Assembly (NCBI GenBank): GCA_016234935.1
Contig: JACRNL010000011.1
Coordinates: forward strand, 129,472 to 193,471
Source of the DNA: Deltaproteobacteria bacterium
Lineage (GTDB): Bacteria > Desulfobacterota > GWC2-55-46
Length of the DNA: 64,000 nt
Direction: 5' to 3'
Shown: in pieces, positions 1 to 30,909 of the stretch
Layout of the letters: each line of letters starts with the position of its first letter
Position numbering within the stretch: position 1 is the stretch's first letter
The notes under the pieces: model-generated
What the model was told of the DNA's origin: nothing
The model's database searches: none
What the model saw: only the letters and a program-made list of their open reading frames with translations
Position numbers and translations under genes: made by a program

Positions 1-3000
1 ATGTCGCCATGGACCCTGCCGGCGCAAGCAGGTATGTCTCCATAGCCGGCGCCGTCTTCATAATCCCTTTCGTCCTGTTTTCGGGCTACGCAGGTTATCT
101 TGCCGACGTCATCAACAAGCGCTCCGTCCTTATCGCCGCCAAGAGCTTTGAGATAATCGCGGTGACGTGGGGGCTCTTTTCGTTCTTCACGGGCCGCATA
201 GAGCTCATGTTCATGGGCCTTTTCCTCATGGCCTCTCATTCGGCGTTTTTCTCCCCCGCGAAGTACGGCATACTGCCGGAGATCATGCCGCCGGAAGACC
301 TGTCGAGCGCCAACGGTCTTCTGGAAATGAGCACCTTCCTCGCGATAGTCCTGGGAACCGCGATAGGAAGCGTCATGTATTCCTTCTGGAAGGACGACCT
401 TGAAATTATCGGCGGCATCCTCGTCGTAATCGCGGTCGCGGGGACGATGCTGAGCTTTGGCATCCCGCGCGTGCCCGCATCGGGCTCCGTTAAGAAGTTC
501 ACGTTCAATCCGCTTTCGGAGATAATCGCGGGTGTAAAAATACTCTTTAAAAAACGCCAGCTCCTTCTGGCCGTCGGCAGCATAACCTTTTTCTGGTTCC
601 TTGGGACTCTCCTTCAGATGCTCCTCCTCCTGCTCGGCAAGGAAGTGATGCATTTGAGCGACATGATGATAGGCGTCATCGTGACCTTCCTCGCCATAGG
701 CATTGGTTCGGGGGCGGTGATCGCCGGCAGGCTTTCCGGAGACAAGATCGAGCTTGGTCTTTCTCCCCTTGGCGCCATAGGCATGGGGGTATGCGCCATG
801 CTCCTTGCCTACTCGACCTTTTCCTTTGTCCTCACCAGCATAGTCCTTACGCTGCTCGGCTTTTTTGGAGGGATATTCGTCGTGCCCCTTAATGCCATAC
901 TCCAGCATAAAAGCGGCAAGGAGGAAAAGGGCAGGGTAATCGCCACGAATAACTTTATAAACACCGGCGGCATCCTTGGGGCTTCGGCCGTTCTGTGGCT
1001 CACAAGGGACATAATGAACGTGCCCGTGGAAAAGATAATTTTCATCTTCGGCGGCTGCGCGATACTGCTGGCCGTCTTTTTGATAGCGGTCCTGCCGCAG
1101 TATCTTGTCCGCTTCACGTTCTGGTTTTTGGCGCATACGGTATATAAGATACGCATCGAGGGCAGGAATAACGTCCCTGTGTGCGGGCCGGCCCTGATAG
1201 TGTCCAACCACATCTCCTTTATTGACTGGCTCTTTATCAGCGCGTGCGTCCAGCGCTTCATCAGATTTATGATTCACAGCCGGTATTATGAGATGAAGTT
1301 CCTTAAATCGGGGCTGCGCCTCATGAAGGTCATCCCCGTGCCGGATGCGGGGAGGAAAGAGCTGTTCGAGTCCATAAAAATGGCGCGCGAGGAGTTGAAG
1401 GCAGGCCACGTCGTGTGCATCTTCGCCGAGGGTATGCTGTCGCGGACGGGTAATCTCCTGCCATTCAAGAAGGGCATCGAGAGGATAGCGGGCGGCCTTG
1501 ATGTGCCGATAGTGCCGGTGCATCTTGACAGGGTCTGGGGGTCGGTATTTTCTTTTAAAAAGGGCAGGTTTTTCTGGAAGATGCCGGAGCGCGCAAGGCG
1601 CTCGGTAACGGTAAGCTTCGGCGCGCCGCTGCCTTCCACCGCCGCGTCCGAGGATGTTAGGCACGCCATTATGGAGCTCGGCGCCGGAGCGATAGCCCAC
1701 CGCATAGATTCGGGCGAAACGCTCCACACAAGGTTCATAAAGACCGCAAGGAGGCGGTGGTTTTCCCCTTGCGTGGCGGATTCGGGCGGGGCGGAGCTTG
1801 CCTTTGGCGCGGCGCTTACCGCGGCGATGCTCCTTTCAGACTGGCTTGAAAAGGAGAAAGGCCCTGAAAAGTTCATCGGCATAATGCTCCCGGCCTCTGC
1901 GGGCGCGGTGGTCGCCAATGCCGGAGCAATGCTTGCCGGAAAGACGGTCGTGAATCTGAACTTCACGGCGGGGCATTCCTCCATTCAATCGGCCGTAAGG
2001 CTCTGCGGCATAAAGACCGTCATCACTTCGCGCCAATTCCTTTCAAAGGCCCGATTTTTTTCTAAAACTGAGCCGGGCGGGTTGGAAGGCATGGTTTTCC
2101 TTGAGGACATTGCCGAAGGCTTCGGCGCGCTTAAAAAGGCCGTTAAATATATTTCGGCCATAGCCATTCCTTCCTTCCTGCTTGCGCGGATGTACGGCCG
2201 CGGCACGGACGCGTCAAGCCTTGCGACGGTGATATTCACAAGCGGGTCGACCGGAGAGCCAAAAGGGGTGATGCTCTCGCACAGGAACATCCTTGCCAAC
2301 ACCGAGGGTTTCTCGCAGGTATTCCACAAATTGGGCAGGAAAGACGTCCTTATGGGCGTCCTGCCGTTTTTTCACGCGTTCGGGTTTGCGGGGACGCTGT
2401 GGTTCCCGCTCTTGAACGGTTTTAAGGCTGTCTACCATTCAAACCCGATGGACGCCAAGACCGTCGGGGAGATGGTCAAAAAGCACGGGGCTACGGCGCT
2501 TATCGCCACGCCGGCCTTCTATTCGGCATATGTCAGGAACTGCTCCAGAGAGGAGTTTTCCACCGTAAGGATAGCCATCTCAGGGGCGGAGAAGCTGAGG
2601 GACGGCGCGGCAAACGCATTTAAAGAGAAGTTCGGTCTTGAGCTTTTGGAGGGTTACGGATGCACCGAGCTTTCCCCCGTAGTGGCGGTCAACGTCCCGG
2701 ATGTCGTGCACGGGAAGATAACGCAAACGGGCCGGAGGCACGGCACCGTGGGCCAGCCGATACCGGGCGTGGCCGTGAAGATAGTCCACGCCCAGAGCAG
2801 GGAGAGGCTTTACGCCGGAGCGGAAGGCATCCTTTTTGTGAAAGGCCATTCGGTGACGAATGGCTACTTAAGCGACCATCTGGCGACAGGAGAGATGCTG
2901 GAGGGCGGCTGGTATAATACAGGGGACATCGCGTCAATGGACGAGGACGGCTTCCTCCGCATAGTTGACAGGGTATCGAGGTTTTCAAAGGTCGCAGGGG

Positions 3001-3311
3001 AAATGGTCCCGCATATAAGGATCGAGCAGGCCATACTCGACGCGGGCGGAGGGGGGGCGGCGGTCACCGCCGTTCCGGACGGCTCGCGGGGAGAGCGCAT
3101 CGTGGCCTTTTACACGGCTAATGACGTGACAGAGGGCGACCTCCGTGCGCGGCTTTTAAAGACGGATATGCCGAGGCTCTGGATACCGAAAAAAGAGAAC
3201 ATTCATTTTACCCGGGAGATACCGGTTGCCGCGTCGGGCAAGGCCGATATGAAGAGGATAAAGGCTATGGCGCTCGCGCTCCAAGATAAGAGCGAGCCTG
3301 AATACGGATAA
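1..3311 (+). CDS. aas: LplT-Aas-like triple fusion: MFS lysophospholipid transporter + PlsC-type acyltransferase + AMP-dependent acyl-ACP/CoA synthetase. 5' end truncated by the window (first in-frame Met at 9).
   Basis: ORF 9..3311, open to the window edge. Eleven TM helices N-terminally, and the MFS motif-A-like GYAGYLADxINKR follows the first in-window helix, so TM1 is missing. HxxxxD acyltransferase box NHISFIDW. AMP-binding motif TSGSTGEPKGV. C-terminal ligase region ends ...PVAASGKADMKRIKA. Confidence 0.8.
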   Translation, partial: VAMDPAGASRYVSIAGAVFIIPFVLFSGYAGYLADVINKRSVLIAAKSFEIIAVTWGLFSFFTGRIELMFMGLFLMASHSAFFSPAKYGILPEIMPPEDLSSANGLLEMSTFLAIVLGTAIGSVMYSFWKDDLEIIGGILVVIAVAGTMLSFGIPRVPASGSVKKFTFNPLSEIIAGVKILFKKRQLLLAVGSITFFWFLGTLLQMLLLLLGKEVMHLSDMMIGVIVTFLAIGIGSGAVIAGRLSGDKIELGLSPLGAIGMGVCAMLLAYSTFSFVLTSIVLTLLGFFGGIFVVPLNAILQHKSGKEEKGRVIATNNFINTGGILGASAVLWLTRDIMNVPVEKIIFIFGGCAILLAVFLIAVLPQYLVRFTFWFLAHTVYKIRIEGRNNVPVCGPALIVSNHISFIDWLFISACVQRFIRFMIHSRYYEMKFLKSGLRLMKVIPVPDAGRKELFESIKMAREELKAGHVVCIFAEGMLSRTGNLLPFKKGIERIAGGLDVPIVPVHLDRVWGSVFSFKKGRFFWKMPERARRSVTVSFGAPLPSTAASEDVRHAIMELGAGAIAHRIDSGETLHTRFIKTARRRWFSPCVADSGGAELAFGAALTAAMLLSDWLEKEKGPEKFIGIMLPASAGAVVANAGAMLAGKTVVNLNFTAGHSSIQSAVRLCGIKTVITSRQFLSKARFFSKTEPGGLEGMVFLEDIAEGFGALKKAVKYISAIAIPSFLLARMYGRGTDASSLATVIFTSGSTGEPKGVMLSHRNILANTEGFSQVFHKLGRKDVLMGVLPFFHAFGFAGTLWFPLLNGFKAVYHSNPMDAKTVGEMVKKHGATALIATPAFYSAYVRNCSREEFSTVRIAISGAEKLRDGAANAFKEKFGLELLEGYGCTELSPVVAVNVPDVVHGKITQTGRRHGTVGQPIPGVAVKIVHAQSRERLYAGAEGILFVKGHSVTNGYLSDHLATGEMLEGGWYNTGDIASMDEDGFLRIVDRVSRFSKVAGEMVPHIRIEQAILDAGGGGAAVTAVPDGSRGERIVAFYTANDVTEGDLRARLLKTDMPRLWIPKKENIHFTREIPVAASGKADMKRIKAMALALQDKSEPEYG

Positions 3312-9102: not shown

Positions 9103-10131
9103 ATGTTAAGCGGCAAGACCATACTCATAACCGGCGGCACAGGGTCATTCGGCAAGAAGATGGTAGAGGTTATTTTGGCGCGCTACCGGCCTGAAAAACT
9201 CATAATCTTCAGCAGGGATGAATTGAAGCAATATGATATGTCGCAGAAGTGGAGCGCTGAGAAGTATCCCTGCATGCGTTATTTTTTAGGCGACGTGCGC
9301 GACAAGGACAGGCTCGTGCGCGCCTTTCACGGCGTTGATTATATAATACACGCGGCGGCGTTGAAGCAGGTGCCGGCGGCTGAATATAACCCCGCGGAGT
9401 TCATCAAGACCAACGTCAACGGCGCGATGAACGTCATTGACGCGGCAATAGACAGGAACGTGAAGAAGGTCGTAGCCCTTTCAACGGACAAGGCCTGCAA
9501 CCCCGCGAACCTCTACGGCGCGACGAAGCTCTGCTCGGATAAGCTCTTCCTTGCGGCCAGCGTCTACGGCGGGCAGGACGGCACCGTTTTCTCGGTCGTG
9601 CGCTACGGGAACGTAGTCGGCAGCCGCGGCTCCGTCATCCCGTTTTTCACAAAGGAAGCGGCTAAAGGCGTGCTGCCGATAACCGACGTCAGGATGACAC
9701 GCTTCTGGATTACCCTCGATCAGGCCGCTGACTTCGTCCTTAAGGCCCTTGCGCTCTCAAAGGGGAGCGAGGTATTCGTGCCCAAGATACCTTCAATGAA
9801 GATAACCGACCTTGCAAAGGCCATCGCCCCTGAATGTGAACACAAGATCGTAGGCATACGCCCGGGCGAAAAGATACACGAGACCCTTGTCGCGGAAGAC
9901 GAGGGCAGGAATACGGTCGAGTACAGGGAATGCTTCGTTGTCAGGCACAATTTTCTGCCTGGCGACCAGAAAAACGGCAAAAGGTGCGTCGAGGGGTTCA
10001 AATACACATCAGACAACAACACGCTCCATATCGGCATCGAAGAGCTTCGCCTCGTGCTCGCGCGCATGTCCGCTGAAGAGGGCGTGGCGGCAGGTAATCA
10101 CTGGCGCATGGAAGATTTAGCCCGCGGGTAG
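9103..10131 (+). CDS. pseB: UDP-N-acetylglucosamine 4,6-dehydratase (inverting) PseB
   Basis: MLSGKTILITGGTGSFGKK...SRDELKQ...YGATKLCSDKLF...VVRYGNVVGSRGSVIPFF...ITDVRMTRFWITLD. From memory, close to Helicobacter pylori FlaA1/PseB along its full length. Confidence 0.9.
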   Translation: MLSGKTILITGGTGSFGKKMVEVILARYRPEKLIIFSRDELKQYDMSQKWSAEKYPCMRYFLGDVRDKDRLVRAFHGVDYIIHAAALKQVPAAEYNPAEFIKTNVNGAMNVIDAAIDRNVKKVVALSTDKACNPANLYGATKLCSDKLFLAASVYGGQDGTVFSVVRYGNVVGSRGSVIPFFTKEAAKGVLPITDVRMTRFWITLDQAADFVLKALALSKGSEVFVPKIPSMKITDLAKAIAPECEHKIVGIRPGEKIHETLVAEDEGRNTVEYRECFVVRHNFLPGDQKNGKRCVEGFKYTSDNNTLHIGIEELRLVLARMSAEEGVAAGNHWRMEDLARG

Positions 10132-10146
10132 GTTTTTTTAAATCAA

Positions 10147-11361
10147 ATGCCAAAAGAAAAAAATTCCGGGTTCATACCATACGGCAGGCAGTGGATAGAT
10201 GAAGACGATATCCGCGCCGTGGCCCGGGCGCTGAGCTGCGATTATCTCACGCAGGGTCCCGGGGTGGAGCGGTTTGAAGAGGCCCTGGCCGGATATCTTG
10301 GCGCGAGGTTTGCCGTGGCGGTTTCAAGCGGCACCGCGGCGCTTCATTTAGCGTGCCTTGCCGTTGGAGTGAAAGACCGCCTTGAGGCAATAACGACCCC
10401 GATAACCTTTGCCGCAAGCGCGAACTCGGCCGTTTACTGCGGCGGAAAGCCGGTGTTTGCGGATATTGAGCCCCATACCTTTAATATTAATCCCGATGAG
10501 ATACGAAAGAAGATAACGGCGCGCGCGAAGGCGGTTATCCCCGTGCATTTCGCCGGGCTTGCCTGCGATATGGACGCCATCAGGGCCATCGCCGATGAGC
10601 GCGGCCTGACGGTCATTGAAGACGCCTGCCACGCGCTCGGCGCGGAGTATAAGGATTTAAAAGGCAAGTGGCATAAGGCCGGCTCTTGCGCCCATTCGGA
10701 CCTGTCTATCATGAGCTTCCATCCGGTAAAGCACATAACCACCGGAGAGGGCGGCGCGATACTCACAAACAGCCCGGAGCTTTATGAAAGGCTTATGCTC
10801 CTGAGGACGCACGGCATAACAAAGAAGCCGGATGCGTTTAAAAACAAGGCAATGGCCTTTGATGAAAACGGCGCGCCCAACCCCTGGTACTATGAGATGC
10901 AGGAGGCGGGGTTCAATTACAGGCTGACTGACCTGCAGTGCGCCCTGGGCATAAGCCAGCTTAAAAAGCTCGACGCCTTTGTCGCAAGAAGGCGGCGCAT
11001 AGCGGATATTTATAGCGCGGCCTTTAAGGGGATTGATCTTATAACGCCGCAGGCCGTGTCCGCAGGCAGGGTGTCGTCCTACCACCTCTACGCCGTGCAG
11101 ATTGATTTTAAGAGGCTCGGCAAAAGCCGGGCAAGAATTATGACGGAGCTTAAGGAAAAGGGCATAGGCACTCAGGTGCACTATATCCCCGTGCATTTAC
11201 AGCCCTTTTACAGGGAAAGGTTCGGATGCAAAAAGGGAGACTTCCCCGTGGCCGAGGCGTATTACGAAAAGGCCCTGAGCCTGCCCATGTACCCGAAGAT
11301 GACGGACGATGATGTGAGGCGGGTGGTCCAGGCTGTAACGGGCCTGCTAAAGGTTGCGTGA
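10147..11361 (+). CDS. pseC: UDP-4-amino-4,6-dideoxy-N-acetyl-beta-L-altrosamine transaminase PseC (DegT/DnrJ/EryC1 family)
   Basis: 404 aa PLP aminotransferase fold. DegT-type motifs, SFHPVKHITTGEGG lysine region. Confidence 0.85.
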   Translation: MPKEKNSGFIPYGRQWIDEDDIRAVARALSCDYLTQGPGVERFEEALAGYLGARFAVAVSSGTAALHLACLAVGVKDRLEAITTPITFAASANSAVYCGGKPVFADIEPHTFNINPDEIRKKITARAKAVIPVHFAGLACDMDAIRAIADERGLTVIEDACHALGAEYKDLKGKWHKAGSCAHSDLSIMSFHPVKHITTGEGGAILTNSPELYERLMLLRTHGITKKPDAFKNKAMAFDENGAPNPWYYEMQEAGFNYRLTDLQCALGISQLKKLDAFVARRRRIADIYSAAFKGIDLITPQAVSAGRVSSYHLYAVQIDFKRLGKSRARIMTELKEKGIGTQVHYIPVHLQPFYRERFGCKKGDFPVAEAYYEKALSLPMYPKMTDDDVRRVVQAVTGLLKVA

Positions 11362-12891
11362 ATGTCAAGGAAAGTCCTGCTCATAAGGCCGCGTAACGTT
11401 TATAATTACAATAATTATCCCGCGCTTAATCTTATATGCGTCGGTTCCAAGCTTAAGTCCGCCGGATATGACGTCAAGATAATCAATTGCGCCTTTGAAA
11501 ACGACCCGTTAAAGGCCATAAGCGCTGAACTGAAGGATTCTCTGTTAGCGGGCATATCGTTTCTTACCTCCGAAGTGCCTGATGCCTATGCCGTAATGAA
11601 GCACATAAAAGACAGCTCCGATTTGCCGGTGGTCGCGGGGGGCTGGCACACGACCCTTTTCCCTGAACAGATGGAGGCGTGTCAATACGTTGATTACGTG
11701 GTGGCGGGAGAGGGCGAAGAGCATATACTGAAGATAGCCGACCTGCTGGCAAAAGGAGAGCGGCCCGGGCAGAAGATATTCCCCAAAAGGATGCTCGATA
11801 TGGATACCCTGCCCATGCCGGATTATGACATCGACGGCAATATCGGCAGGTTCATGGACAGCTATCTTACGGACAAGCTCTCTGAATATGTAAGGCAGCC
11901 CATGCGGTGGCTTCCTTACGAATCAAGCCGCGGTTGCCCGTCGCATTGCACCTTCTGCATAAACGTTGTGGCAGGCAATACGCGTTACAGAAAAAAGAGC
12001 GCGGCGAAGGTTATCTCGGAGATAGAGTATATAGTAAACAAACACAAGCTTACGCACCTGAAGATAATAGACGACAACTTCTTTGTTGACATAAAGTGGG
12101 TGCGTGAGATATGCGCCGGAATAATCGACAGAGGGTTCGACATAACATGGGACGGCGAGTGCCGCTGCGACTATTTTAACGATCGTCATCTTAACGACGA
12201 AACGCTGGATCTTTGCAGAAGGTCGGGTCTTGTTCAGCTTACGCTTGGGATAGAGTCCGGCTCCGAGCATACCCTGAAGCTAATGAAAAAGGGCATAACG
12301 CCGGAGCAGGCTGAAAACGCCGTAAGGAGCTGCAACGCGCATAAGATAATAGCCAGATCGTCTTTCATACTTGAGATACCCGGAGAGACGATAGACGATA
12401 TTAAATACACGATACGGCTCATAAACAGGCTGAGAAGATACCCGTATTTCACCTGCGGGGTTGGCACCTTCAGGCCGTATCCGAAGTGCGAGCTTACCGA
12501 GAACCTCCTGAAGGAAGGCTACCTCAAGGAGCCGCGGAGTTTTGAGGAGTGGAAAATGCAGAACGTTATAGACATGTACACCTCGGCGGAATATCAAAGG
12601 CCGTGGCAGGCGAACGCTGATTATTCCGAGAGCGCGGCCTATTATCTGAACATGGAATCAAGCGTGAGGCTCGGGAACCACCAAATAGACAGGGCGCGTG
12701 ACAGGGTTATTAATAATATGTTCATATCCGTCGCGAAGCTGAGAAATAAATTGGCGTACTATGGGCTCCCTTTTGAAAAAATACTCTATAAAAGATTTCT
12801 GAAGAATTTTTACAGCAGGAGGCAGGAGATGGAAAAGAGCGGCTCGTATCCGCTGTCACGCGGTCTTGAAAAGGACGGGAAAAGGGCATGA
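11362..12891 (+). CDS. Cobalamin (B12)-binding radical SAM protein, class B
   Basis: N-terminal B12-binding Rossmann-like domain. CxxxCxxC radical SAM motif CPSHCTFC. 509 aa. Confidence 0.8.
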   Translation: MSRKVLLIRPRNVYNYNNYPALNLICVGSKLKSAGYDVKIINCAFENDPLKAISAELKDSLLAGISFLTSEVPDAYAVMKHIKDSSDLPVVAGGWHTTLFPEQMEACQYVDYVVAGEGEEHILKIADLLAKGERPGQKIFPKRMLDMDTLPMPDYDIDGNIGRFMDSYLTDKLSEYVRQPMRWLPYESSRGCPSHCTFCINVVAGNTRYRKKSAAKVISEIEYIVNKHKLTHLKIIDDNFFVDIKWVREICAGIIDRGFDITWDGECRCDYFNDRHLNDETLDLCRRSGLVQLTLGIESGSEHTLKLMKKGITPEQAENAVRSCNAHKIIARSSFILEIPGETIDDIKYTIRLINRLRRYPYFTCGVGTFRPYPKCELTENLLKEGYLKEPRSFEEWKMQNVIDMYTSAEYQRPWQANADYSESAAYYLNMESSVRLGNHQIDRARDRVINNMFISVAKLRNKLAYYGLPFEKILYKRFLKNFYSRRQEMEKSGSYPLSRGLEKDGKRA

Positions 12892-13871
12892 GGGTTTTAG
12901 TCGCAGGCACAGGGTCAATCGGCACAAGGCACATAAAGAACCTCGTCGAGCTCGGTCATGAGGTGTATGCTACTGACATAAATCAGGAGTGCCTCAAGGC
13001 CGCCGCGCCGCTTGTGAAGGGGACATTCGTGTCGCTTGACGGCGCGCTTAAGGTCAGGCCTGAAGCGGCTTTTATCTGCACATTCAGCTCAGATCATATA
13101 GAACCCGCGCGCAAATGCGCGGAGGCTGGCTGCCATATTTTTATAGAAAAGCCGCTCTCGATGGATTTAAACGGCGTGGACGAGCTGATAGATACGGCTG
13201 ACAGTAAGGGCCTTGTCACGATGGCCGGCTGCAACATGAGATTCCACCCTGCGGTGGCGCATATTAAAGGCATCCTTGACAACGAAGCCGCTTTTGCTAA
13301 AAAGCTCTGGGCAAACCTTGAGTTCGGCTATTATCTGCCGTTTGCCAAGAAGGACTACGAGTCTTCTTATATGGCAAGAAGGAGTCTGGGCGGCAATATC
13401 ATCTTCGATGTGATACATGAGCTTGATTACGCCGTTTGGTTCTTTGGAAAGCCGGTTGAGGTCTTTTGCAGCAAGGGCATACTGTCGGGCTTGAAAATAG
13501 ACACTGAAGACTACGCGGATATGATGATAAGGTTTAAGTCAGGCGCGGTTTGCGTGATACACATGGATTATCTGCAGCACGGCTACTCAAGAAGGTGCAA
13601 GGTCGTCGCCGAAGGCGGGACGGTCGTCTGGGACTTCGCGCACGGCGATATCGGCGCCGTGACCGTAAATAGCAGGCAATGGGACTGGAAGGAAATGAAA
13701 CTTGAAGCTCTCTATAACCGCATGTACGTGGATGAGGCGCAATACTTCATGGACTGCGTTTCATCCGCCAAGGATACGTTCAATCCCTTAAAGGGTGCGC
13801 TTTCCGTTCTAAAGCTCGCGCTCGCGGCGAATATATCCTGCCATACAAACAAGTGGGAGATGGTGTCATGA
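12888..13871 (+). CDS. Gfo/Idh/MocA family NAD(P)-dependent oxidoreductase
   Basis: MRVLVAGTGSIGTRHIKNL Rossmann N-terminus. 327 aa. ATGA overlap with the upstream gene. Confidence 0.8.
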   Translation: MRVLVAGTGSIGTRHIKNLVELGHEVYATDINQECLKAAAPLVKGTFVSLDGALKVRPEAAFICTFSSDHIEPARKCAEAGCHIFIEKPLSMDLNGVDELIDTADSKGLVTMAGCNMRFHPAVAHIKGILDNEAAFAKKLWANLEFGYYLPFAKKDYESSYMARRSLGGNIIFDVIHELDYAVWFFGKPVEVFCSKGILSGLKIDTEDYADMMIRFKSGAVCVIHMDYLQHGYSRRCKVVAEGGTVVWDFAHGDIGAVTVNSRQWDWKEMKLEALYNRMYVDEAQYFMDCVSSAKDTFNPLKGALSVLKLALAANISCHTNKWEMVS

Positions 13872-14737
13872 GCAAGGTTATCGGGGTAATTACGGCGAGA
13901 ATGGCGTCAACGCGCCTTCCGGGCAAGGTCTTGCTGAAGATGGCTGGTAAATCCATATTCGCGCATCATGCCGAGAGGATGCAGAACGTTAAGGGCCTTG
14001 ACGGGGTTTTTCTGGCCACGTCGGAAGACCCTCTGAATAAGCCGCTTATCGCGGAGGCGGAGCAAATGGGCTGCGGGTGGTTTGCCGGGGCTGAGCAGGA
14101 TATAGTGGACAGGCACATAAAGCTGTGCGAAAGGGAAGGGGCCGACGCCTTTATACGTGTCACCTGCGATTCTCCCATATTCGACATCGGGAGCGCGTCA
14201 AGGTTCGTATCCGAGTTCAGGAAGGAGTACAGGGACCTGATCTATGTCTCCAACATGACGATGATTCAGGGATCTCTGTCCGAGCTGCTCTCTTATAAGG
14301 CCATGGTCCAGGTGCATAAGCAGTACAGGGGCGCGGGCATCTCAATGCCTATAAAGGAAAATATGGATAAGTATAAGACCCTCGGCATAGAGATAGACGC
14401 CGACCTGTGCAGGCCTGAGTACCGCATAACGATTGACGAAGCCGTTGACATTGAAATGATAGGCAAGATATACGAGGCGCTCTATAAGGGCAGGCCGCTT
14501 GACCTTCATGAAGTATATACCTGGCTGGATGACTACCCCATGGTAGCGAAGATGAACATGCATGTCGGCATAAAGGGGTGCGAGCAGCAGAGCGCCAATC
14601 TGACGGAGATGCCGGTCTATACCGTAGTGAAGTCCGGCAAAGGCTTCGTGATACTCGATGAGCAAAAGCGCATGGTCGCGCCGGAGGATTTTATGTCAAG
14701 GGTTAAGGATATTTTCCCGCAACTAAAACGGGGATGA
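13868..14737 (+). CDS. SpsF/FlmC-type cytidylyltransferase-like protein (glycan pathway)
   Basis: VIGVITARMASTRLPGKVLL is typical of the SpsF/NeuA-like cytidylyltransferase family. Start at ATG 13868 overlaps the upstream stop. Confidence 0.65.
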   Translation: MSKVIGVITARMASTRLPGKVLLKMAGKSIFAHHAERMQNVKGLDGVFLATSEDPLNKPLIAEAEQMGCGWFAGAEQDIVDRHIKLCEREGADAFIRVTCDSPIFDIGSASRFVSEFRKEYRDLIYVSNMTMIQGSLSELLSYKAMVQVHKQYRGAGISMPIKENMDKYKTLGIEIDADLCRPEYRITIDEAVDIEMIGKIYEALYKGRPLDLHEVYTWLDDYPMVAKMNMHVGIKGCEQQSANLTEMPVYTVVKSGKGFVILDEQKRMVAPEDFMSRVKDIFPQLKRG

Positions 14738-14738
14738 A

Positions 14739-16037
14739 TTGATGACCATGAAAGACCGTTATATCCGTTCAGAAGAGATGCATAAAAGGGCGTTAAAGGC
14801 AATCCCTCTGGGCACGCAGACCTTCAGCAAGAGCAGTACCCAGTATCCGTTCGGCGTCTCCCCTTATTTTATAAAAAAGGGCAGGGGCTCGCATGTGTGG
14901 GACGTTGACGGCAACGAGTATGTTGACTTTATCAATTCCCTTGCCGCCATAACGCTCGGCTACAACGACCCTGACGTCGACGCGGCCGTGAGGGCGCAGC
15001 TTGAAGAAGGCGTGATATTTTCCCTGCCGCACGAACTTGAGATAAAGGCCGCTGAAAAGGTCATAGAGATGGTTCCGTGCGCCGAGATGGTCAGGTTCGG
15101 CAAGAACGGCTCCGACGCAACGGCCGGGGCGATACGGGTCTCAAGGGCCTTTACGAAAAGGGACCATGTCGCCGTGTGCGGCTACCACGGCTGGCAGGAC
15201 TGGTACATCGGCTCAACCGCGCGAAATCTCGGCGTGCCAAAGGCCACGCGCGAGCTGACGCATACGTTTACTTACAATAATATTGATTCGCTCGATAAGA
15301 TATTCAAGGATTACCCTAACGATGTGGCCGCAGTAATCATGGAACCGATGAACGTTTTTGAGCCGGTTGACGGATTCCTTGAAAAGGCCGCGGAGCTTAC
15401 GCGAAGAAACAACGCGGTCTTCATATTCGACGAGACCATCACGGGCTTTCGCTACGCAAACGGCGGGGCCGGCGAATATTTTAACGTGAAGCCCGACCTT
15501 GCCACATTCGGCAAGGGGCTTGCCAACGGCTATCCCGTTTCCGCGGTGGCCGGAAGGGCCGATATAATGCGGTTCATGGAGGATGTATTTTTTTCATTCA
15601 CATTCGGCGGAGAGACATTGTCCCTTGCCGCCGCTCTTACGACCATGGAAAAGTTGCAGAGGGAGCCTGTCATAAAGACCATCTGGTCTCAGGGGGCGAA
15701 GATACTTGACGGCCTTACTCCCCTTATTAAAAAGCACGGGCTTGAAGATATTCTTTCGACAGCCGGCAAGCCCTGCTGGTCTTTTCTGGTATTCAAAGAC
15801 GCGAAAGACTATACCATGTGGGAATTAAAAACACTCTTTTTGCAGGAGATATTCGCGCGCGGCGTGCTTACGCTTACCACGCACAACATGAGCTACGCGC
15901 ATACCGATGAGGACATCGCAAAGCTCCTCAAGGCGTATGACGAGGTGTTCGGGATGATGAAAGAGGCCGTGGAGGAAAAGTCGCTCTTGAAACTACTGCG
16001 CACGGAGCCTCTGGCTGCGCTCTTTAAAGTGAGATGA
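14739..16037 (+). CDS. Class III (GSA-aminomutase-like) PLP-dependent aminotransferase
   Basis: 432 aa. FIFDETITGFR and AT-III fold. Common in flagellin and nonulosonate glycosylation islands. Confidence 0.8.
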   Translation: MMTMKDRYIRSEEMHKRALKAIPLGTQTFSKSSTQYPFGVSPYFIKKGRGSHVWDVDGNEYVDFINSLAAITLGYNDPDVDAAVRAQLEEGVIFSLPHELEIKAAEKVIEMVPCAEMVRFGKNGSDATAGAIRVSRAFTKRDHVAVCGYHGWQDWYIGSTARNLGVPKATRELTHTFTYNNIDSLDKIFKDYPNDVAAVIMEPMNVFEPVDGFLEKAAELTRRNNAVFIFDETITGFRYANGGAGEYFNVKPDLATFGKGLANGYPVSAVAGRADIMRFMEDVFFSFTFGGETLSLAAALTTMEKLQREPVIKTIWSQGAKILDGLTPLIKKHGLEDILSTAGKPCWSFLVFKDAKDYTMWELKTLFLQEIFARGVLTLTTHNMSYAHTDEDIAKLLKAYDEVFGMMKEAVEEKSLLKLLRTEPLAALFKVR

Positions 16038-17107
16038 AGGTAATCTTCAGGACGGACGCCTCCGTCGCAATCGGCTCCGGCCACGCAATGAGGTGTCTGA
16101 CCCTTGCGGCCGCGCTCCGTGAAAAAGGCGCGGAGGTGGTTTTTATATGCAGGGAGCTTAAGGGCAATCTCTGCGCCTTCATCGAGGAAAAGGGTTATCG
16201 CGTGAGAAGGCTTCCTGTGCATTCGGATTCGGCGTTGCAAAAGGGCCTGTATGCGCGCTGGCTCGGAGTGGATATTGAAACAGACGCGGCGGAGACAATG
16301 GCCGCGATAGAAAAGGAAGGACAGGTGCGCTGGCTGGTTATTGACAGCTATGCCATTGACAAAAGGTGGGAGGCCCGCATGAGGCCGTTTGTGTCCGGCA
16401 TCATGGTGATTGACGACCTTGCCGACCGCGAGCATGACTGCGACATACTGCTGAACCAGAACCTTTACGACGACATGGAGGAAAGATACGCGGGTAAGCT
16501 CCCTATTCACTGCAAAAGGCTTTTTGGCCCTGAATACGCGCTTATTCGGCCAGAGTTCAGGGACGCAAGATTAAAGCGCGGGCAAAGGCACGGCAGCATC
16601 AGGCGCATACTCGTATTTTACGGCGGAAGCGACCTCACAAACGAGACCTCGAAGGCGTTAAGGGCGATTCAATCATTGAATATGCCTCAAGTGGCCGTTG
16701 ACGTGGTCGTTGGCAAGGCAAACCCGAATAGGGAAGAGATTGAGAAGCACGCATTTGCCCTTCCCAATGCGGCATTTTACTGCCAGACTGACGATATGGC
16801 GGAGCTTATGTCAAGGGCAGACCTTGCCCTTGGGGCCGGTGGGTCTTCCTCGTGGGAGAGGTGCTGCATGGGCCTGCCGGCTATAGTGACTGTCGTAGCT
16901 GAAAATCAGGCCGCGATAGCGGAAAACCTCGCCAAAAGAGGGATAGTGATAAATCTCGGCTGGCACGCGGACGCGAAGGAAGCTGATATACAAAATGCCG
17001 TTAAAGCCCTTATGGATGACCGCCAAAAGGTTTTGGAGATGGGCAAAAGGGCGTTAGGGCTTGTTGACGGAGACGGGGCCCTTAGGGCTGTTAAGGAGAT
17101 GATTTAA
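16034..17107 (+). CDS. pseG: UDP-2,4-diacetamido-2,4,6-trideoxy-beta-L-altropyranose hydrolase PseG
   Basis: MKVIFRTDASVAIGSGHAMRCLTLA N-terminus and GT-B-like fold, 357 aa. Sits between the aminotransferase and pseH. Confidence 0.85.
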   Translation: MKVIFRTDASVAIGSGHAMRCLTLAAALREKGAEVVFICRELKGNLCAFIEEKGYRVRRLPVHSDSALQKGLYARWLGVDIETDAAETMAAIEKEGQVRWLVIDSYAIDKRWEARMRPFVSGIMVIDDLADREHDCDILLNQNLYDDMEERYAGKLPIHCKRLFGPEYALIRPEFRDARLKRGQRHGSIRRILVFYGGSDLTNETSKALRAIQSLNMPQVAVDVVVGKANPNREEIEKHAFALPNAAFYCQTDDMAELMSRADLALGAGGSSSWERCCMGLPAIVTVVAENQAAIAENLAKRGIVINLGWHADAKEADIQNAVKALMDDRQKVLEMGKRALGLVDGDGALRAVKEMI

Positions 17108-17122
17108 AGAGAGGTTTCTTGC

Positions 17123-17605
17123 GTGAAGACATCCTTTAATTCAAAAGATGCAGAGATAAATTTCAGATATATTGATGAGTCTGACGTAGAAGATCTGTTT
17201 GAATGGAGAAATCACCCTGAGGTAAGGAAAAACTCTTTTAATATGGCTCCGTTAATATTCAAGGAGCATGAAGAGTGGTTTAAGAGAAAAATTAAAAACT
17301 CTGACACAACCATATATATGGCGTGTTGTGGTAATGACAAAATAGGTTCAATCAGATTTGAAGACAATGGCGAAGTTGAAAAAGTAAGCGTGATGCTAAA
17401 CCCGAAATTTACCGGCAAAGGCCTTGGCTCCAAAATTATCAGGATTGGAACGTGGAAATTTATAAGCGAAAAGAAGCCGGGTAAACCTGTTGTCGCGGAA
17501 ATTAAAAGGGATAATATAGCTTCAATCAAGGCCTTTGAAAGAGCCGGCTTCAAGGAAAGCTTCATAACCTTTATTTTCGACGAAAAGCAGGGGAATTTTG
17601 AATAA
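17123..17605 (+). CDS. pseH: GNAT N-acetyltransferase PseH
   Basis: 160 aa GNAT between pseG and pseI. GTG start. Markedly AT-rich (about 36-40% GC by eye) relative to its neighbours. Confidence 0.75.
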   Translation: MKTSFNSKDAEINFRYIDESDVEDLFEWRNHPEVRKNSFNMAPLIFKEHEEWFKRKIKNSDTTIYMACCGNDKIGSIRFEDNGEVEKVSVMLNPKFTGKGLGSKIIRIGTWKFISEKKPGKPVVAEIKRDNIASIKAFERAGFKESFITFIFDEKQGNFE

Positions 17606-18671
17606 CTCGATAAAAATTGGAAATAGGTTGATAGGCAAGGCCCATCAGCCGTTTGTCATCGCCGAGATGTCGGGCAACCACAATCAGTCGCTTGACCGGG
17701 CGTTGGCCATTGTCGAGGCCGCGGCAAAGGCCGGGGCACACGCGGTTAAGCTTCAGACCTACACCGCCGACACCATGACGATAGAGGCCGATAAAGGGCG
17801 GGACGCCCTTCAAGGGCTATTCTATATTGACGACCCCAAAAGCCTCTGGAAGGGCAGGTCGCTTTACGAGCTTTACAAAGAGGCGTATACGCCGTGGGAA
17901 TGGCACGGGCCGATTTTCAAGCGCTGCCGTGAATTGGATATTATTGGCTTTAGCACGCCGTTTGACGAGACGGCGGTTGACTTTCTGGAAGGCTTGAGCG
18001 TTCCGGCATACAAGATAGCGTCGTTTGAAAATAATCATCTGCCGCTTATAAAAAAGGCCGCGGCAACGGGTAAGCCCCTTATTATTTCAACCGGCATGGC
18101 GACTGTGGCCGAGCTTGATGAGGCTGTTTTAACGGCGCGTAAGGCCGGATGCAAGGATATCATACTTTTAAAATGCACAAGCGCCTACCCCTCCGTGCCG
18201 GATGACACGAATCTCAAGACCATCAGACATCTCAAAAAACTCTTTGACGTGGAAGCCGGGCTTTCAGACCATACGCTCGGCGTCGGCGTGGCCGCCGCGG
18301 CAGTGGCCCTCGGCGCGACGGTCATTGAAAAGCATTTTACGCTTTCAAGGGCGGACCACGGCGTGGACTCTGTCTTTTCCATGGAGCCTGACGAGCTAAA
18401 GCTCCTTGTGGATGAGACTAAAAAGGCGTGGCTGGCCCTCGGCAAGGTCTCATACGGCCCGACGGAAAGGGAAAGGGCGTCGTTAAGATTCCGCCGTTCC
18501 GTCTACGTTGTGAAGGACGTGGCAATGGGCGGGAAGTTCACAACGGAAAATACAAGGATAATAAGGCCGGGTGACGGCCTTTCGCCAAAGTATTACGACG
18601 TGATAATCGGCAAGACGGCCTCGCGCCACATAAAAAAGGGCACGCCGATGAATTGGGAGATGGTTTTGTAG
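17598..18671 (+). CDS. pseI: Pseudaminic acid synthase PseI (NeuB family)
   Basis: QPFVIAEMSGNHNQSLDRAL... is a NeuB-type TIM barrel. C-terminal SAF/antifreeze-like domain. 357 aa. Confidence 0.9.
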   Translation: MNNSIKIGNRLIGKAHQPFVIAEMSGNHNQSLDRALAIVEAAAKAGAHAVKLQTYTADTMTIEADKGRDALQGLFYIDDPKSLWKGRSLYELYKEAYTPWEWHGPIFKRCRELDIIGFSTPFDETAVDFLEGLSVPAYKIASFENNHLPLIKKAAATGKPLIISTGMATVAELDEAVLTARKAGCKDIILLKCTSAYPSVPDDTNLKTIRHLKKLFDVEAGLSDHTLGVGVAAAAVALGATVIEKHFTLSRADHGVDSVFSMEPDELKLLVDETKKAWLALGKVSYGPTERERASLRFRRSVYVVKDVAMGGKFTTENTRIIRPGDGLSPKYYDVIIGKTASRHIKKGTPMNWEMVL

Positions 18672-18697
18672 CAGGTAAAATCTTCTATTGCGGGGGG

Positions 18698-19255
18698 ATG
18701 ATGAAAACAAGGCCGATATTCCTTGAAGGGAAAGATATCTTTCTCGGGCCGTTGTCGAAAGACGACAACCTCGATGATTACGCAAGCTGGCTTAATGACG
18801 CGGAAACAACACGCTACATGGGAAGCGGAAGGTTTCCGTTAGCCGCCGAAGGCCTCATGGACTATATTGGCCACTACAATAGCGGCAAGGACGGCATGCT
18901 CCTTGGGATATTTCTTAAAAAACCGGTCAGGCACATAGGCAACATAACGCTCCATCAGATAGACTGGAGAAACAGGCACGCGGAGATAGGTATTCTAATT
19001 GGCGACAAAAAGGCGCGCGGCAAAGGCTACGCGAAAGAGGCCGTGATTCTTGCGGCGCGCCATGCGTTTACGCGCTTAAATCTGAGGAAGCTTACGGCCG
19101 GCATGATAAAGGGCAATGAAGCGTCGAAAAGAGTCTTTGAGAAAGCTGGCTTCAAGGTCGAGGGCGTGCTTCGTGAGCACTTTTTTCTTGACGGTGAATA
19201 CCTCGATTGCTTAAGGCTCGGGCTTCTGAGAAGCGAATTTGTTGACATGGGCTGA
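18698..19255 (+). CDS. GNAT family N-acetyltransferase (RimL-like)
   Basis: GNAT core at HAEIGILIGDKKARGKGYAKEAV. Start at ATG 18698 after SD gcgggggg. Confidence 0.75.
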   Translation: MMKTRPIFLEGKDIFLGPLSKDDNLDDYASWLNDAETTRYMGSGRFPLAAEGLMDYIGHYNSGKDGMLLGIFLKKPVRHIGNITLHQIDWRNRHAEIGILIGDKKARGKGYAKEAVILAARHAFTRLNLRKLTAGMIKGNEASKRVFEKAGFKVEGVLREHFFLDGEYLDCLRLGLLRSEFVDMG

Positions 19256-20198: not shown

Positions 20199-22310
20199 AT
20201 GCCGGGTTATGTCAAGGATGTTTTGTGCGGCAAGCGTATTTATATGAAAATCAGGTTTTACAGCTATTTCGGCGCCCTGCAGGTGATGTCGGTCTTTTTG
20301 TCAGGGGCGGGAAAGGAGATATACTATTTCGATATATCCGCGGCAGGCAAGGCCTTGCTTGGCCTCTTGAATATGAAAGGCCGCGTCAAGCCTTTTGAGT
20401 TCATCTTAGCCGAAGTAAAGGATTCAACCGGTCAGAGTTATTTCCCGAGGATATACGGAAGAGATATCGTGGCCGTATGCGACGTGATAGAGAATGACGT
20501 ATTCAGGAAAAACCCTCTAATAGACGCGCTTGGAAATATCTTTGACAGGGAAAAGATAATCCTGTATTTCAGAAAGATCGCAGGCAAGGAAATAGCCGAA
20601 AATATCGCATTCTTAAATGTTATTTCGTGGCACTGCCAAACGGTATCGGGCAATAAGCCTGATGCCGTTGAGTTTTTTATAGAGAGCACGGCGTACTACA
20701 GGGCGTTAAGAGATTTTGCGCTGAGAGAGCACCGGATATCGCTTGGCTGGCAGGTCTCCTCAAGAAAGATGTTCAGGTTTTTTTACCCGCTAATTGGGAA
20801 TGTGTTCCTTTCGGTTCTGCTGTGTTTTAGACCGCTTGCAAGCTTTTTTAGCACGACAAAAAAGCTGCCATCAGATAAATCCAGGCCGGTTCTTGCCAGT
20901 TTATATACTGTCAGGGGATTGACCTTTGACCGCACGAAGCGCTGCGATTTCCCCTGGCTGCTCATGTCTGAAATGTCACGCGAGCAGATATTGATCTATT
21001 TCGACAGAAAGGACCTGCCGGTCACGGACGATATGGCTGAGTTGCTGAGGCGGCAGGGTGTCAACTGCATGGCGATGTCTGCCGAGGCAACCAGCGTAAG
21101 CGGGATGCCTGTTTTCGTCCCTTCGTTCGTAACCGTGAAAAAGCTCCTCAGGCAGACCGGCCGTGTTTTATTTGCCGCTTTTAAAGAGGCATCCCGTCTC
21201 AGGTTGCGCTCATTAGTTTATTTGAGCGCTGGCATTCGTTTCGCGAGAGAATATTCCGTTGCATACGATTTTTACCTTTCCAATAATATTAAGATAAATA
21301 TGGATTTTATTGATTTTGACCCCAACCGGATACCGAGGAGCCTTGCGCTGAGAGACGCGGGCGGGGTAAGCATAAGCTATCAGGTGTCTAACTGGCCCAT
21401 ACCCAACGTGATACTTGGCACGGGCGCGGATATCTTTTTCATGTTCGGGCCGCACTATTTGAAAAATTTTCTTAAAGGCGGCGCCTGTAATGACGCCGTT
21501 GTTTATACCGGATATACGTCTGATTATTCATTTGCCGCAGTTAAGGAAAGGGCAAGGGATTTGCGGGAGAGGCTTGTGGGGAGCGGTGCGCAGTTTGTGG
21601 TCGCTTATTTCGATGAGAACTCCGCCGGGGGCAGGATGAGCATCATCCCGCATAAAACAGCCGCGGTAATCTATAAAAGACTTTTGGAGCTGGTCGTAGC
21701 GGATGGAACCATTGGTCTTATTTGCAGCCCTAAGCGCCCCAAGACCCTTCTTAAGCGAATGCCGGAGCTTTCATCTCTTTTGAAAAAGGCAAAGGATACG
21801 GGCAGGTGTCTGTTTATCGAGGGAGAATACGCCACTGACAAATATCCTGCCGAATCAGCGCAGGCCTCAGACCTTGTGATAACTTTATTGATAGGCGGCA
21901 CTACGGCGCTGGAGAGCCACCTTTGCGGCCAAAGGGCGGTCTTCCTTGATCTGGAAGGGTTTTATTCCTACACGGAATATGAATGGGGCAGGAACACCAT
22001 CGTCTTTGACGATATGGACGCTCTAATATCGGCTATCGAAAGATTCCGGCAGGATGGGCAGGCAAACGACGCGCTGGGCAATCCCGCGCTGATACGAACG
22101 CTTAATGAAAAAGATCCGTTCCGCGACGGGAAGGCCGCCGAAAGGATGGGGCAGTATCTGAACTGGCTGCTTGAGGCCTTTAACCAGGGCGGGACAAGGC
22201 AGGACGCGATCGCGTCCGCCAACAGCAAATATGCGGAGCAATGGGGCAAGGAAAATATCGTAAGGCTTGAATATCCGGCAGGGAGCCGTTTGTCGCCGGA
22301 TAAGGATTGA
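20199..22310 (+). CDS. Large hypothetical protein with GT-B-like C-terminal signature (putative glycosyltransferase), 703 aa
   Basis: C-terminal ...DLVITLLIGGTTALESHLCGQRAVFLD resembles the GT-B donor-binding motif. Lower GC than its flanks. No other motif recognised. Confidence 0.45.
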   Translation: MPGYVKDVLCGKRIYMKIRFYSYFGALQVMSVFLSGAGKEIYYFDISAAGKALLGLLNMKGRVKPFEFILAEVKDSTGQSYFPRIYGRDIVAVCDVIENDVFRKNPLIDALGNIFDREKIILYFRKIAGKEIAENIAFLNVISWHCQTVSGNKPDAVEFFIESTAYYRALRDFALREHRISLGWQVSSRKMFRFFYPLIGNVFLSVLLCFRPLASFFSTTKKLPSDKSRPVLASLYTVRGLTFDRTKRCDFPWLLMSEMSREQILIYFDRKDLPVTDDMAELLRRQGVNCMAMSAEATSVSGMPVFVPSFVTVKKLLRQTGRVLFAAFKEASRLRLRSLVYLSAGIRFAREYSVAYDFYLSNNIKINMDFIDFDPNRIPRSLALRDAGGVSISYQVSNWPIPNVILGTGADIFFMFGPHYLKNFLKGGACNDAVVYTGYTSDYSFAAVKERARDLRERLVGSGAQFVVAYFDENSAGGRMSIIPHKTAAVIYKRLLELVVADGTIGLICSPKRPKTLLKRMPELSSLLKKAKDTGRCLFIEGEYATDKYPAESAQASDLVITLLIGGTTALESHLCGQRAVFLDLEGFYSYTEYEWGRNTIVFDDMDALISAIERFRQDGQANDALGNPALIRTLNEKDPFRDGKAAERMGQYLNWLLEAFNQGGTRQDAIASANSKYAEQWGKENIVRLEYPAGSRLSPDKD

Positions 22311-30896: not shown

Positions 30897-30909
30897 TAGA
30901 AGGTATGGC

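Follow-up and report, generated by a model that had tools for sequence, protein, structure and literature searches.

The gene rSAM1 occupies positions 11362 to 12891 of a 64,000-nucleotide stretch of DNA from Deltaproteobacteria bacterium (GenBank assembly GCA_016234935.1, contig JACRNL010000011.1, positions 129,472 to 193,471 of the forward strand; the whole stretch is referred to as the window). Its product is almost certainly a real radical S-adenosylmethionine (SAM) enzyme of the class-B type and very probably a dedicated tailoring enzyme of nonulosonic acid biosynthesis, and it is tentatively read here as a cobalamin-dependent C-methyltransferase acting on a nonulosonic acid or on its cytidine monophosphate (CMP) ester. 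The enzyme superfamily is an established one, but the clade, the pathway in which it occurs and the reaction that this implies are new. Nonulosonic acids (sialic, pseudaminic and legionaminic acid) cap bacterial as well as archaeal surfaces and flagella and shape recognition by phages and the immune system, and in every route described to our knowledge the nine-carbon skeleton is built from a hexose and phosphoenolpyruvate (PEP) and then decorated at its O and N atoms only. In the full-text literature searched, nothing was found on a radical SAM step in the making of nonulosonic acids, in agreement with a preliminary description of this DNA, made from the letters alone, in which no such step was known from the described pathways to pseudaminic acid (Pse). 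The observations reported in the following concern the domain architecture, the motifs, the fold class, the clade structure and the conserved gene neighbourhood of rSAM1.

11362 to 12891, forward strand: rSAM1, radical SAM gene with a B12-binding domain (PF02310 + PF04055), ATG start, 509 amino acids (aa).

The preliminary description had recognised a class-B, i.e. B12-domain, radical SAM enzyme by a CPSHCTFC cluster motif, and the profile search for the two domains bears this out, as both lie above their Pfam gathering thresholds: residues 18-121 match the B12-binding domain PF02310 (47.7 bits vs. 32.1) and residues 187-354 match Radical_SAM PF04055 (64.5 bits vs. 29.5). The motif corresponds to C192-x3-C196-x2-C199 (CxxxCxxC), and none of the three cysteines varies across 28 orthologues. 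The N-terminal domain contains the conserved SxL (S66-F-L68) and GG (G93-G94) elements of cobalamin-binding Rossmann domains but no DxHxxG histidine, which is likewise missing from the solved class-B radical SAM enzymes and whose absence is typical of them. From its sequence, rSAM1 is accordingly predicted to bind cobalamin. Outside the CxxxCxxC motif, four further cysteines, C267, C324, C365 and C376 (window positions ~12160-12490), are invariant in the same orthologues, with C251 and C269 almost completely conserved. rSAM1 shares 100% identity with MBI5888756.1, a protein of a deltaproteobacterial metagenome-assembled genome (MAG) named at NCBI only as a "B12-binding domain-containing radical SAM protein", and it has more than 1000 homologues; this architecture and this number of homologues are far beyond chance.

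With respect to known families, no NCBIfam model reaches its cut-off for rSAM1. The highest partial scores are those of BchE (TIGR02026, 127.5 bits vs. a cut-off of 481.35), a radical SAM enzyme of ladderane lipids (122 vs. 360) and HpnJ (110 vs. 578). Amongst the methylase models, those for the C-methyltransferase of ribosomally synthesised and post-translationally modified peptides (RiPPs; TIGR03975, 104 vs. 282), PhpK (TIGR04479, 99 vs. 600), MgmA (TIGR04014, 82 vs. 360), HpnR (TIGR04367, 63 vs. 650), TsrM (TIGR04428, 47 vs. 500) and KedN5 (NF033712, 31 vs. 700) all stay below, and the model of the AprD4-type diol dehydratases (NF033070) scores 25.7 bits vs. 500 over the core residues 187-390 only. 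None of the NCBIfam equivalog models of the Pse pathway matches rSAM1 although they do match its neighbours, and rSAM1 is an accessory step outside the canonical set of CMP-Pse enzymes. The possibility that a housekeeping enzyme of the class-B or HemN-like kind (BchE, coproporphyrinogen oxidase or an enzyme of lipid or hopanoid synthesis) has come to lie in the cluster by chance could draw on BchE as the top partial NCBIfam match and on the names "anaerobic Mg-protoporphyrin IX monomethyl ester cyclase" and "YgiQ" given to homologues by some metagenome pipelines. It can, for practical purposes, be dismissed: a housekeeping best match, which according to the preliminary description would have refuted its reading, was not found, as no HemN or HemZ model of NCBIfam matches rSAM1 at E <= 1e-3 and BchE remains far below its cut-off, and the gene is translationally coupled on both sides within a glycan cluster, not amongst photosynthesis genes, in a nonulosonic acid synteny that was found in 19/19 loci (see below). 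A housekeeping identity as BchE, HemN or YgiQ was therefore rejected.

An AlphaFold2 model of rSAM1 (28 orthologues; mean pLDDT 87.5, pTM 0.87) was compared with known structures by Foldseek, which returned TsrM, OxsB, MgmA, AprD4, CysS and TokK with TM scores around 0.6 and only 14-19% sequence identity. For TsrM, OxsB, MgmA, CysS and TokK the Foldseek probability is 1.00, with E-values from 3e-20 to 3e-13 and TM scores of 0.58-0.67; these enzymes share with rSAM1 a Rossmann B12 domain and a partial TIM-barrel radical SAM core, but they act on tryptophan, a nucleotide, a protein glutamine and carrier- or pantetheine-linked compounds, and rSAM1 has extra invariant cysteines. Sequence matches to the PDB are weak. 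Of the comparison with enzymes of the GenK/Fom3/TsrM class that the preliminary description had envisaged, the likeness in fold to TsrM stands, whereas in sequence the PhpK, TsrM and KedN5 models are below cut-off. Taken at the level of its sequence, rSAM1 thus has a class-B architecture, is a member of no characterised family and forms a separate clade.

Since AprD4 and OxsB are amongst the best structural matches and HpnJ and BchE amongst the best partial family matches, rSAM1 might instead be a radical enzyme that does not methylate, for instance an AprD4-like dehydratase or deoxygenase making the ketone that the neighbouring aminotransferase requires, an epimerase, or a catalyst of an OxsB/HpnJ-like ring rearrangement; the B12-like domain would then be structural, or cobalamin would be used differently. 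AprD4 binds no cobalamin, and a similar N-terminal domain can be cobalamin-free. However, AprD4 (PDB 6fd2) aligns to rSAM1 over the radical SAM core alone (residues 188-392), while the N-terminal domain of rSAM1 exceeds the Pfam B12-binding threshold, keeps the SxL and GG elements and, in the family profile, aligns to the cobalamin domains of OxsB, TsrM and TokK. In addition, Pse5Ac7Ac lacks the vicinal diol on which AprD4-type chemistry would act, the ketone is already accounted for by the recruited dehydrogenases, which belong to the Gfo, iron alcohol dehydrogenase (Fe-ADH) or aldo-keto reductase (AKR) families, and the radical SAM gene is present without an aminotransferase or dehydrogenase partner in three loci (L018, L026, L029). 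We therefore consider a non-methylating enzyme unlikely.

The link of rSAM1 to nonulosonic acids comes from its orthologues. In an exhaustive representative search, the orthologues of at least 62% identity (62-90%) form one 50%-identity cluster (870 bits), which is separated from the next tier of full-length relatives at 41-47% identity and at most 487 bits, below which there is a continuum. The hosts are uncultured, mostly anaerobic bacteria and archaea, comprising Nitrospirota, Deltaproteobacteria/Desulfobacterota, the anammox bacteria Scalindua and Brocadia, other Planctomycetota, Omnitrophota, Margulisbacteria, WOR-1/Saganbacteria, a Flavobacteria MAG, archaea of the ANME-2 group and Methanoregula. 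Synteny was counted in the 19 orthologous loci with downstream sequence, and in all of them the setting is a PseB/NeuB nonulosonic acid cluster and a divergent cytidylyltransferase of the type named here CTP294 (61-85% identity) follows just downstream of rSAM1. A gene for an oxidoreductase of the Gfo/Idh/MocA family (Gfo) is inserted between the two in 16 of these loci, and a class-III aminotransferase (AT3 in the window) is usually present as well. This synteny, conserved across phyla, upholds the tie to the pseudaminic or nonulosonic acid pathway that the preliminary description had proposed.

The order of genes in the window itself is as follows, rSAM1 lying between pseC and the Gfo gene.

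9103 to 10131, forward strand: pseB, inverting 4,6-dehydratase of uridine diphosphate (UDP)-GlcNAc (TIGR03589, 494.2 bits vs. 407.75; Polysacc_synt_2).
10147 to 11361, forward strand: pseC, UDP-4-amino-4,6-dideoxy-AltNAc transaminase (TIGR03588, 511.5 bits vs. 423.5).
12888 to 13871, forward strand: Gfo, Gfo/Idh/MocA NAD-dependent oxidoreductase (PF01408, PF22725, PF02894).
13853 to 14737, forward strand: CTP294, divergent CTP_transf_3 cytidylyltransferase (PF02348, 50.9 bits, N-terminal half only).
14739 to 16037, forward strand: AT3, class-III pyridoxal phosphate (PLP) aminotransferase resembling glutamate-1-semialdehyde (GSA) aminomutase (PF00202, 178.5 bits; PRK06209, 434.7 vs. 486).
16034 to 17107, forward strand: pseG, UDP-sugar hydrolase (TIGR03590, 307.6 bits vs. 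153.55).
17123 to 17605, forward strand: GNAT N-acetyltransferase, PseH candidate (PF13302; TIGR03585 at 47.8 bits, cut-off of 93.1 not reached).
17598 to 18671, forward strand: pseI, pseudaminic acid synthase (TIGR03586, 483.1 bits vs. 340.25).
18653 to 19255, forward strand: second GNAT N-acyltransferase, candidate acylator of an extra amino group (PF13302, 90.7 bits).

The first gene of the operon, pseB, is preceded by an intergenic region of ~210 bp, and pseB and pseC both pass their NCBIfam equivalog cut-offs, so that the upstream neighbours named in the preliminary description are as stated there. The pseC stop codon (TGA, 11359-11361) is directly followed by the ATG of rSAM1 at 11362 (TGAATG), and the rSAM1 stop shares an ATGA (12888-12891) with the Gfo start, as expected from the translational coupling to a Gfo/Idh/MocA gene already claimed. 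Gfo has weak NCBIfam matches to the models of inositol 2-dehydrogenase and UDP-GlcNAc 3-dehydrogenase. CTP294 does not match the PseF model (TIGR03584) of NCBIfam and has weak KdsB-type matches only, its top PDB match being 6oew, a "cytidylyltransferase"; the GTG start of its open reading frame (ORF) at 13853 is probably wrong, as the ATG at 13868 gives 289 aa as in the homologues and an ATGA overlap with the Gfo stop. Likewise, the TTG start of the AT3 ORF at 14739 is probably wrong, and the ATG at 14742 gives 431 aa as in the homologues. PDB relatives of AT3 are GSAM, FumI and the gentamicin C-6' aminotransferases (7lld, E 1e-41).

As for the level at which rSAM1 acts, the preliminary description had suggested the PseC product UDP-4-amino-4,6-dideoxy-AltNAc as its substrate, and it is indeed conceivable that a UDP-linked 6-deoxy-hexosamine, the product of PseB or PseC, is methylated or rearranged before condensation with PEP, in which case the sugar entering the PseI reaction would have seven carbons and the acid formed would be a ten-carbon or branched one. 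In line with this, rSAM1 directly follows pseC and precedes pseG and pseI both in the window and in the majority of orthologous loci (15 have pseC immediately upstream), and PseB orthologues (55-72% identity) are found at every rSAM1 locus with enough flank. Moreover, an altered acid would need a specialised cytidylyltransferase, and CMP-linked non-ketoacid species of mass 203 and 217, i.e. differing by CH2, have been reported from Magnetospirillum gryphiswaldense. However, pseC is not directly upstream in L016/L024, L017 and L019/L003 (L026 does have pseC, ~4.6 kb ahead of the radical SAM gene), and sister clades of 44-45% identity reside in NeuB/Epimerase_2 clusters in which no 4,6-dehydratase is seen and PseB and PseC are absent. 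The sole invariant neighbour is instead the cytidylyltransferase, an enzyme that acts after the nine-carbon acid is made, and the substrate is therefore more readily thought of as a nonulosonic acid or its CMP ester than as a UDP-hexose. Action on the hexose thus appears rather improbable, and the PseC product is not favoured as substrate.

Further support for a pairing of rSAM1 with the cytidylyltransferase comes from loci in which other genes have been exchanged. In a cluster type seen in Saganbacteria, Omnitrophota and Planctomycetales, paralogues of 31-35% identity take the place of PseI and AT3, and there is no PseC or PseG, while rSAM1, Gfo (where present), CTP294 and PseB are kept at 58-72% identity. 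L018 (Methanoregula) and L026 have rSAM1 and the cytidylyltransferase but neither a dehydrogenase nor a class-III aminotransferase. Because no cytidylyltransferase other than the CTP294-type enzyme is seen in L018, L003 and L024, this enzyme is probably the CMP-nonulosonate synthetase of rSAM1-type clusters. Two N-acyltransferases are found where the dehydrogenase/aminotransferase pair is present (window, L001, L003, L024, L025) and one where it is not (L018, L026); in this small sample the count fits the creation of an additional amino group in need of acylation. Side observations at these loci are the toxin-antitoxin-like genes (TumE, RelB-like/ParE, DUF5647) inserted in the Brocadia locus L025 at 14697-15334 and 17685-18504, and the HicAB and HepT/MNT pairs upstream of the Nitrospirae version of the cluster.

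The relatives' loci also carry acyl-modifying genes (PIG-L deacetylase, formyltransferase, ATP-grasp), and the iterative methylases TokK and CysS are structural neighbours of rSAM1, from which it might be supposed that the enzyme C-methylates an N-acyl side chain, e.g. turning acetyl into propionyl, where the position of the N-acetyl methyl next to a carbonyl would favour radical formation. Yet rSAM1 is kept in clusters with very different acyl-tailoring genes, which argues for a common target and makes a side-chain methylation quite improbable.

The sister clades (41-47% identity) lie next to CTP_transf_3 and NeuB genes in other NeuB clusters. In the P0121 clade (44-45% identity; L028, L031, L032), a radical SAM gene, CTP_transf_3, Fe-ADH and a DegT-type aminotransferase adjoin NeuB, Epimerase_2 and a hexapeptide acetyltransferase; the P0122 locus has DegT, a short-chain dehydrogenase/reductase (SDR), WbqC, PIG-L, the radical SAM gene, CTP_transf_3 and NeuB; and the P0127 locus has a CTP294-like gene (45% identity), the radical SAM gene, Gfo, SDRs, NeuB and a glycosyltransferase fused to an Aminotran_3 domain. 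In L024, an AKR is paired with AT3. Hence a dehydrogenase and an aminotransferase have been recruited at least three times from unrelated families (Gfo/class III, Fe-ADH/DegT and AKR/class III), and this repeated recruitment is a non-orthologous displacement within a functional module. The module is functional and not incidental, because the P0121 clade swaps Gfo and the class-III enzyme for Fe-ADH and DegT. A homologue search seeded with P0121 returned metagenomic proteins only, with the rSAM1 clade as nearest relatives. Amongst more distant relatives (33-38% identity), several including P0160, P0178 and P0211 are fused to class-I SAM methyltransferase domains, which weakly supports a methylation theme; in the relatives searched for fusions to a cytidylyltransferase or NeuB none were found, but only these methyltransferase fusions and tandem radical SAM repeats. 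Searches by tblastn with rSAM1 gave nothing above 30% identity amongst plasmids and a single match of 25%, in a Streptomyces phage, amongst phages. L027 of a sister clade encodes at 15676-18300 an 874-aa fusion of a class-III aminotransferase domain to a GT4-type glycosyltransferase beside NeuB, which hints at amination coupled to sugar transfer there.

That rSAM1 transfers a methyl group, on which substrate and at which position it does so and what product results are inferred. In the proposed mechanism, the [4Fe-4S] cluster at C192/C196/C199 would cleave SAM to give a 5'-deoxyadenosyl radical, this radical would abstract hydrogen from an sp3 carbon of the sugar, and the sugar radical would take the methyl group from methylcobalamin in the N-terminal domain, a second SAM re-methylating the cobalamin. 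The substrate would be the nine-carbon acid or its CMP ester, the latter made by CTP294, and not the UDP-hexose made by PseC. As an optional part of the module, Gfo would oxidise a secondary hydroxyl (C8 or C4) to a ketone, AT3 would aminate this ketone, and the second GNAT would acylate the new amine to yield a third acetamido group. Methylation could reasonably be expected at C9, adjacent to an 8-keto group, or at a carbon carrying a hydroxyl or an amino group, and the product would be a C-methylated tri-N-acyl nonulosonic acid with ten backbone or branched carbons, which a soluble glycosyltransferase might transfer and Wzx export.

Similar combinations are known from other pathways. In fosfomycin biosynthesis, Fom3 C-methylates the CMP-activated hydroxyethylphosphonate made by the cytidylyltransferase Fom1, so that a cobalamin radical SAM C-methylase and a cytidylyltransferase cooperate on an sp3 carbon of a CMP-activated substrate, as might rSAM1 and CTP294. 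There the substrate is, however, a two-carbon phosphonate, a specific sequence relationship to rSAM1 was not detected (the related PhpK model reaching 99 of 600 bits), and in the rSAM1 pathway CMP activation would also provide the normal donor form of the sugar. Gentamicin biosynthesis combines C-methylation, oxidation and transamination on an aminosugar, with GenK (a B12 radical SAM C6'-methylase), GenQ and GenB1 on the one hand and GenD1, GenD2 (Gfo/Idh/MocA) and GenS2 on the other; the three kinds of reaction (radical C-methylation, hydroxyl oxidation and PLP transamination) are those proposed here, the C-6' aminotransferases are relatives of AT3, and GenD2 belongs to the Gfo superfamily. 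In contrast to the nine-carbon acid, the gentamicin scaffold is a pseudotrisaccharide, the organisms are others, and the GenK-type model KedN5 (31 vs. 700) is below cut-off for rSAM1. KdnB and KdnA of Shewanella convert 3-deoxy-D-manno-octulosonic acid (Kdo) to Kdo8N by an alcohol dehydrogenase and an aminotransferase, so that an amine takes the place of a hydroxyl on a 2-keto-3-deoxy sugar acid. The same pair of Pfam families is found in the sister-clade module of radical SAM enzyme, cytidylyltransferase, Fe-ADH and aminotransferase (L028, L031), whereas the window has Gfo and a class-III aminotransferase, and we know of no radical SAM partner for Kdo8N. Finally, the canonical six-enzyme CMP-Pse pathway (PseB, C, H, G, I, F) is represented in the same operon by PseB, PseC, PseG and PseI above their equivalog cut-offs, but it comprises no radical SAM enzyme, Gfo oxidoreductase or class-III aminotransferase, and in the window PseF is replaced or supplemented by the divergent 289-aa cytidylyltransferase.

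A possible product comes from two papers that report CMP-activated "higher-carbon" (C10) ulosonic acids in Magnetospirillum gryphiswaldense and, at lower abundance, the same compounds in Methanococcus, with no genes assigned in either; the sugar was detected by mass spectrometry as an unassigned CMP-sugar, and the masses reported for the M. gryphiswaldense acid are 693.2139 for the CMP-sugar ([M-H]-) and 506.2240 for the 1,2-diamino-4,5-methylenedioxybenzene (DMB) derivative (PMC8157484; bioRxiv 10.64898/2026.04.20.719630). The composition calculated from these masses, C16H27N3O8, equals that of Pse/Leg5Ac7Ac + CH2 + (OH -> NHAc), and the additional carbon is not part of the C1-C5 core fragment. 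It may be speculated, with considerable doubt, that the rSAM1 clade provides the carbon-adding enzyme of such C10 "deculosonic" acids by methylating a CMP-activated nonulosonic acid; a tri-acetamido ten-carbon acid as the joint product with the dehydrogenase, the aminotransferase and the N-acetyltransferase is an equally speculative extension. A link to the nonulosonic acid of Ca. Kuenenia with its +14 Da variants was considered and dropped as uninformative, since the published cluster lists no radical SAM gene (bioRxiv 10.64898/2026.04.20.719630).

Several points weigh against C-methylation of a nonulosonic acid or its CMP ester by rSAM1. The best partial family matches mix non-methylases (BchE, HpnJ) with methylases (RiPP C-methyltransferase, PhpK), and none of the models of characterised methylase families comes near its cut-off. 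Two of the fold neighbours, OxsB and AprD4, do not methylate. The constant presence of PseB leaves room for action at the hexose level, CTP294 may simply be the PseF equivalent, its adjacency to rSAM1 reflecting operon layout, and the agreement with the Magnetospirillum acid, although the calculated formula is exactly what the window module would add, is one of composition only. All members of the clade come from uncultured organisms, and in the Pse-type O-antigen loci of cultured Legionella (Sg6/Sg12) a cytidylyltransferase, a "GSA aminomutase" and an oxidoreductase, uncharacterised there, occur without a radical SAM gene. The radical C-methylation put forward in the preliminary description is retained nonetheless as the most likely reading of rSAM1, its fold neighbours including these non-methylating enzymes.

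If this reading is true, a C-C bond-forming step by cobalamin radical chemistry would add a new chemical dimension to nonulosonic acids, the substrate range of class-B radical SAM enzymes would extend to CMP-sugars or sugar acids, and the "higher-carbon ulosonic acids" of environmental microbes, so far unexplained, would become accessible at the level of genes. The radical SAM enzyme, oxidoreductase, cytidylyltransferase and aminotransferase would also constitute a compact and portable module for glyco-engineering. Since the clade is spread widely amongst uncultured anaerobes, including anammox bacteria, Nitrospirota, Omnitrophota, ANME and methanogens, it probably affects the surface chemistry of organisms that matter in the environment.

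The glycan cluster harbouring rSAM1 lies on a single strand, extends over ~35 kb (~9.1-43.8 kb) and is bordered by housekeeping and efflux genes. Downstream of the second GNAT gene it encodes methyltransferases, two soluble proteins of 703 and 646 aa without family and a Wzx flippase; later in the cluster follow a PseF-like cytidylyltransferase, an AroB equivalog and an SDR, then a second B12-binding radical SAM enzyme, more methyltransferases and two SPASM radical SAM proteins, and glycosyltransferase and NDP-sugar genes complete it.

24684 to 26624, forward strand: soluble 646-aa protein, candidate glycosyltransferase for the modified sugar (DUF6716 "putative glycosyltransferase", sub-threshold, E 0.0014).

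This protein has no Pfam match above threshold, no PDB sequence match and no transmembrane segments, and homologues of 622-657 aa are found in L003, L015, L018, L024, L025 and L026; it travels with the pair of rSAM1 and cytidylyltransferase across phyla and might transfer the modified sugar. The 703-aa ORF (20199-22310, forward strand) lies between a methyltransferase gene and the Wzx gene, has no family match, and has weak homologues (25-41% identity) in L016/L024 and L021. The 3-dehydroquinate synthase equivalog inside the cluster (26621-28434, forward strand; TIGR01357, 318.6 bits vs. 305) has the weakly PseF-like cytidylyltransferase (74.6 bits vs. 205) and the SDR as neighbours, an odd site for aroB, and may belong to a second branch making a sugar acid or cyclitol. 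The second B12-binding radical SAM gene (29466-30896, forward strand) shares only 24% identity with rSAM1, matches no named family and is directly followed by two class-I methyltransferase genes at 30886-31680 and 31677-32708, the two kinds of domain that are fused in the distant rSAM1 relatives P0160, P0178 and P0211. The SPASM radical SAM genes (32744-33673 and 35587-36465, forward strand) flank a gene at 33770-35590, the 606-aa product of which has no family match and two hydrophobic segments. The phase-variable genes listed for Campylobacter fetus include SPASM-type radical SAM genes, methyltransferases, an SDR and a formyltransferase-domain protein (PMC6321876).

At the left end of the window, positions 9-3311 (forward strand) encode a protein of 1100 aa in which three domains, those of an MFS transporter, an acyltransferase and an AMP-binding enzyme, are fused and which is unrelated to rSAM1. 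We take this fusion to resemble the Aas/LplT lysophospholipid acylation system.

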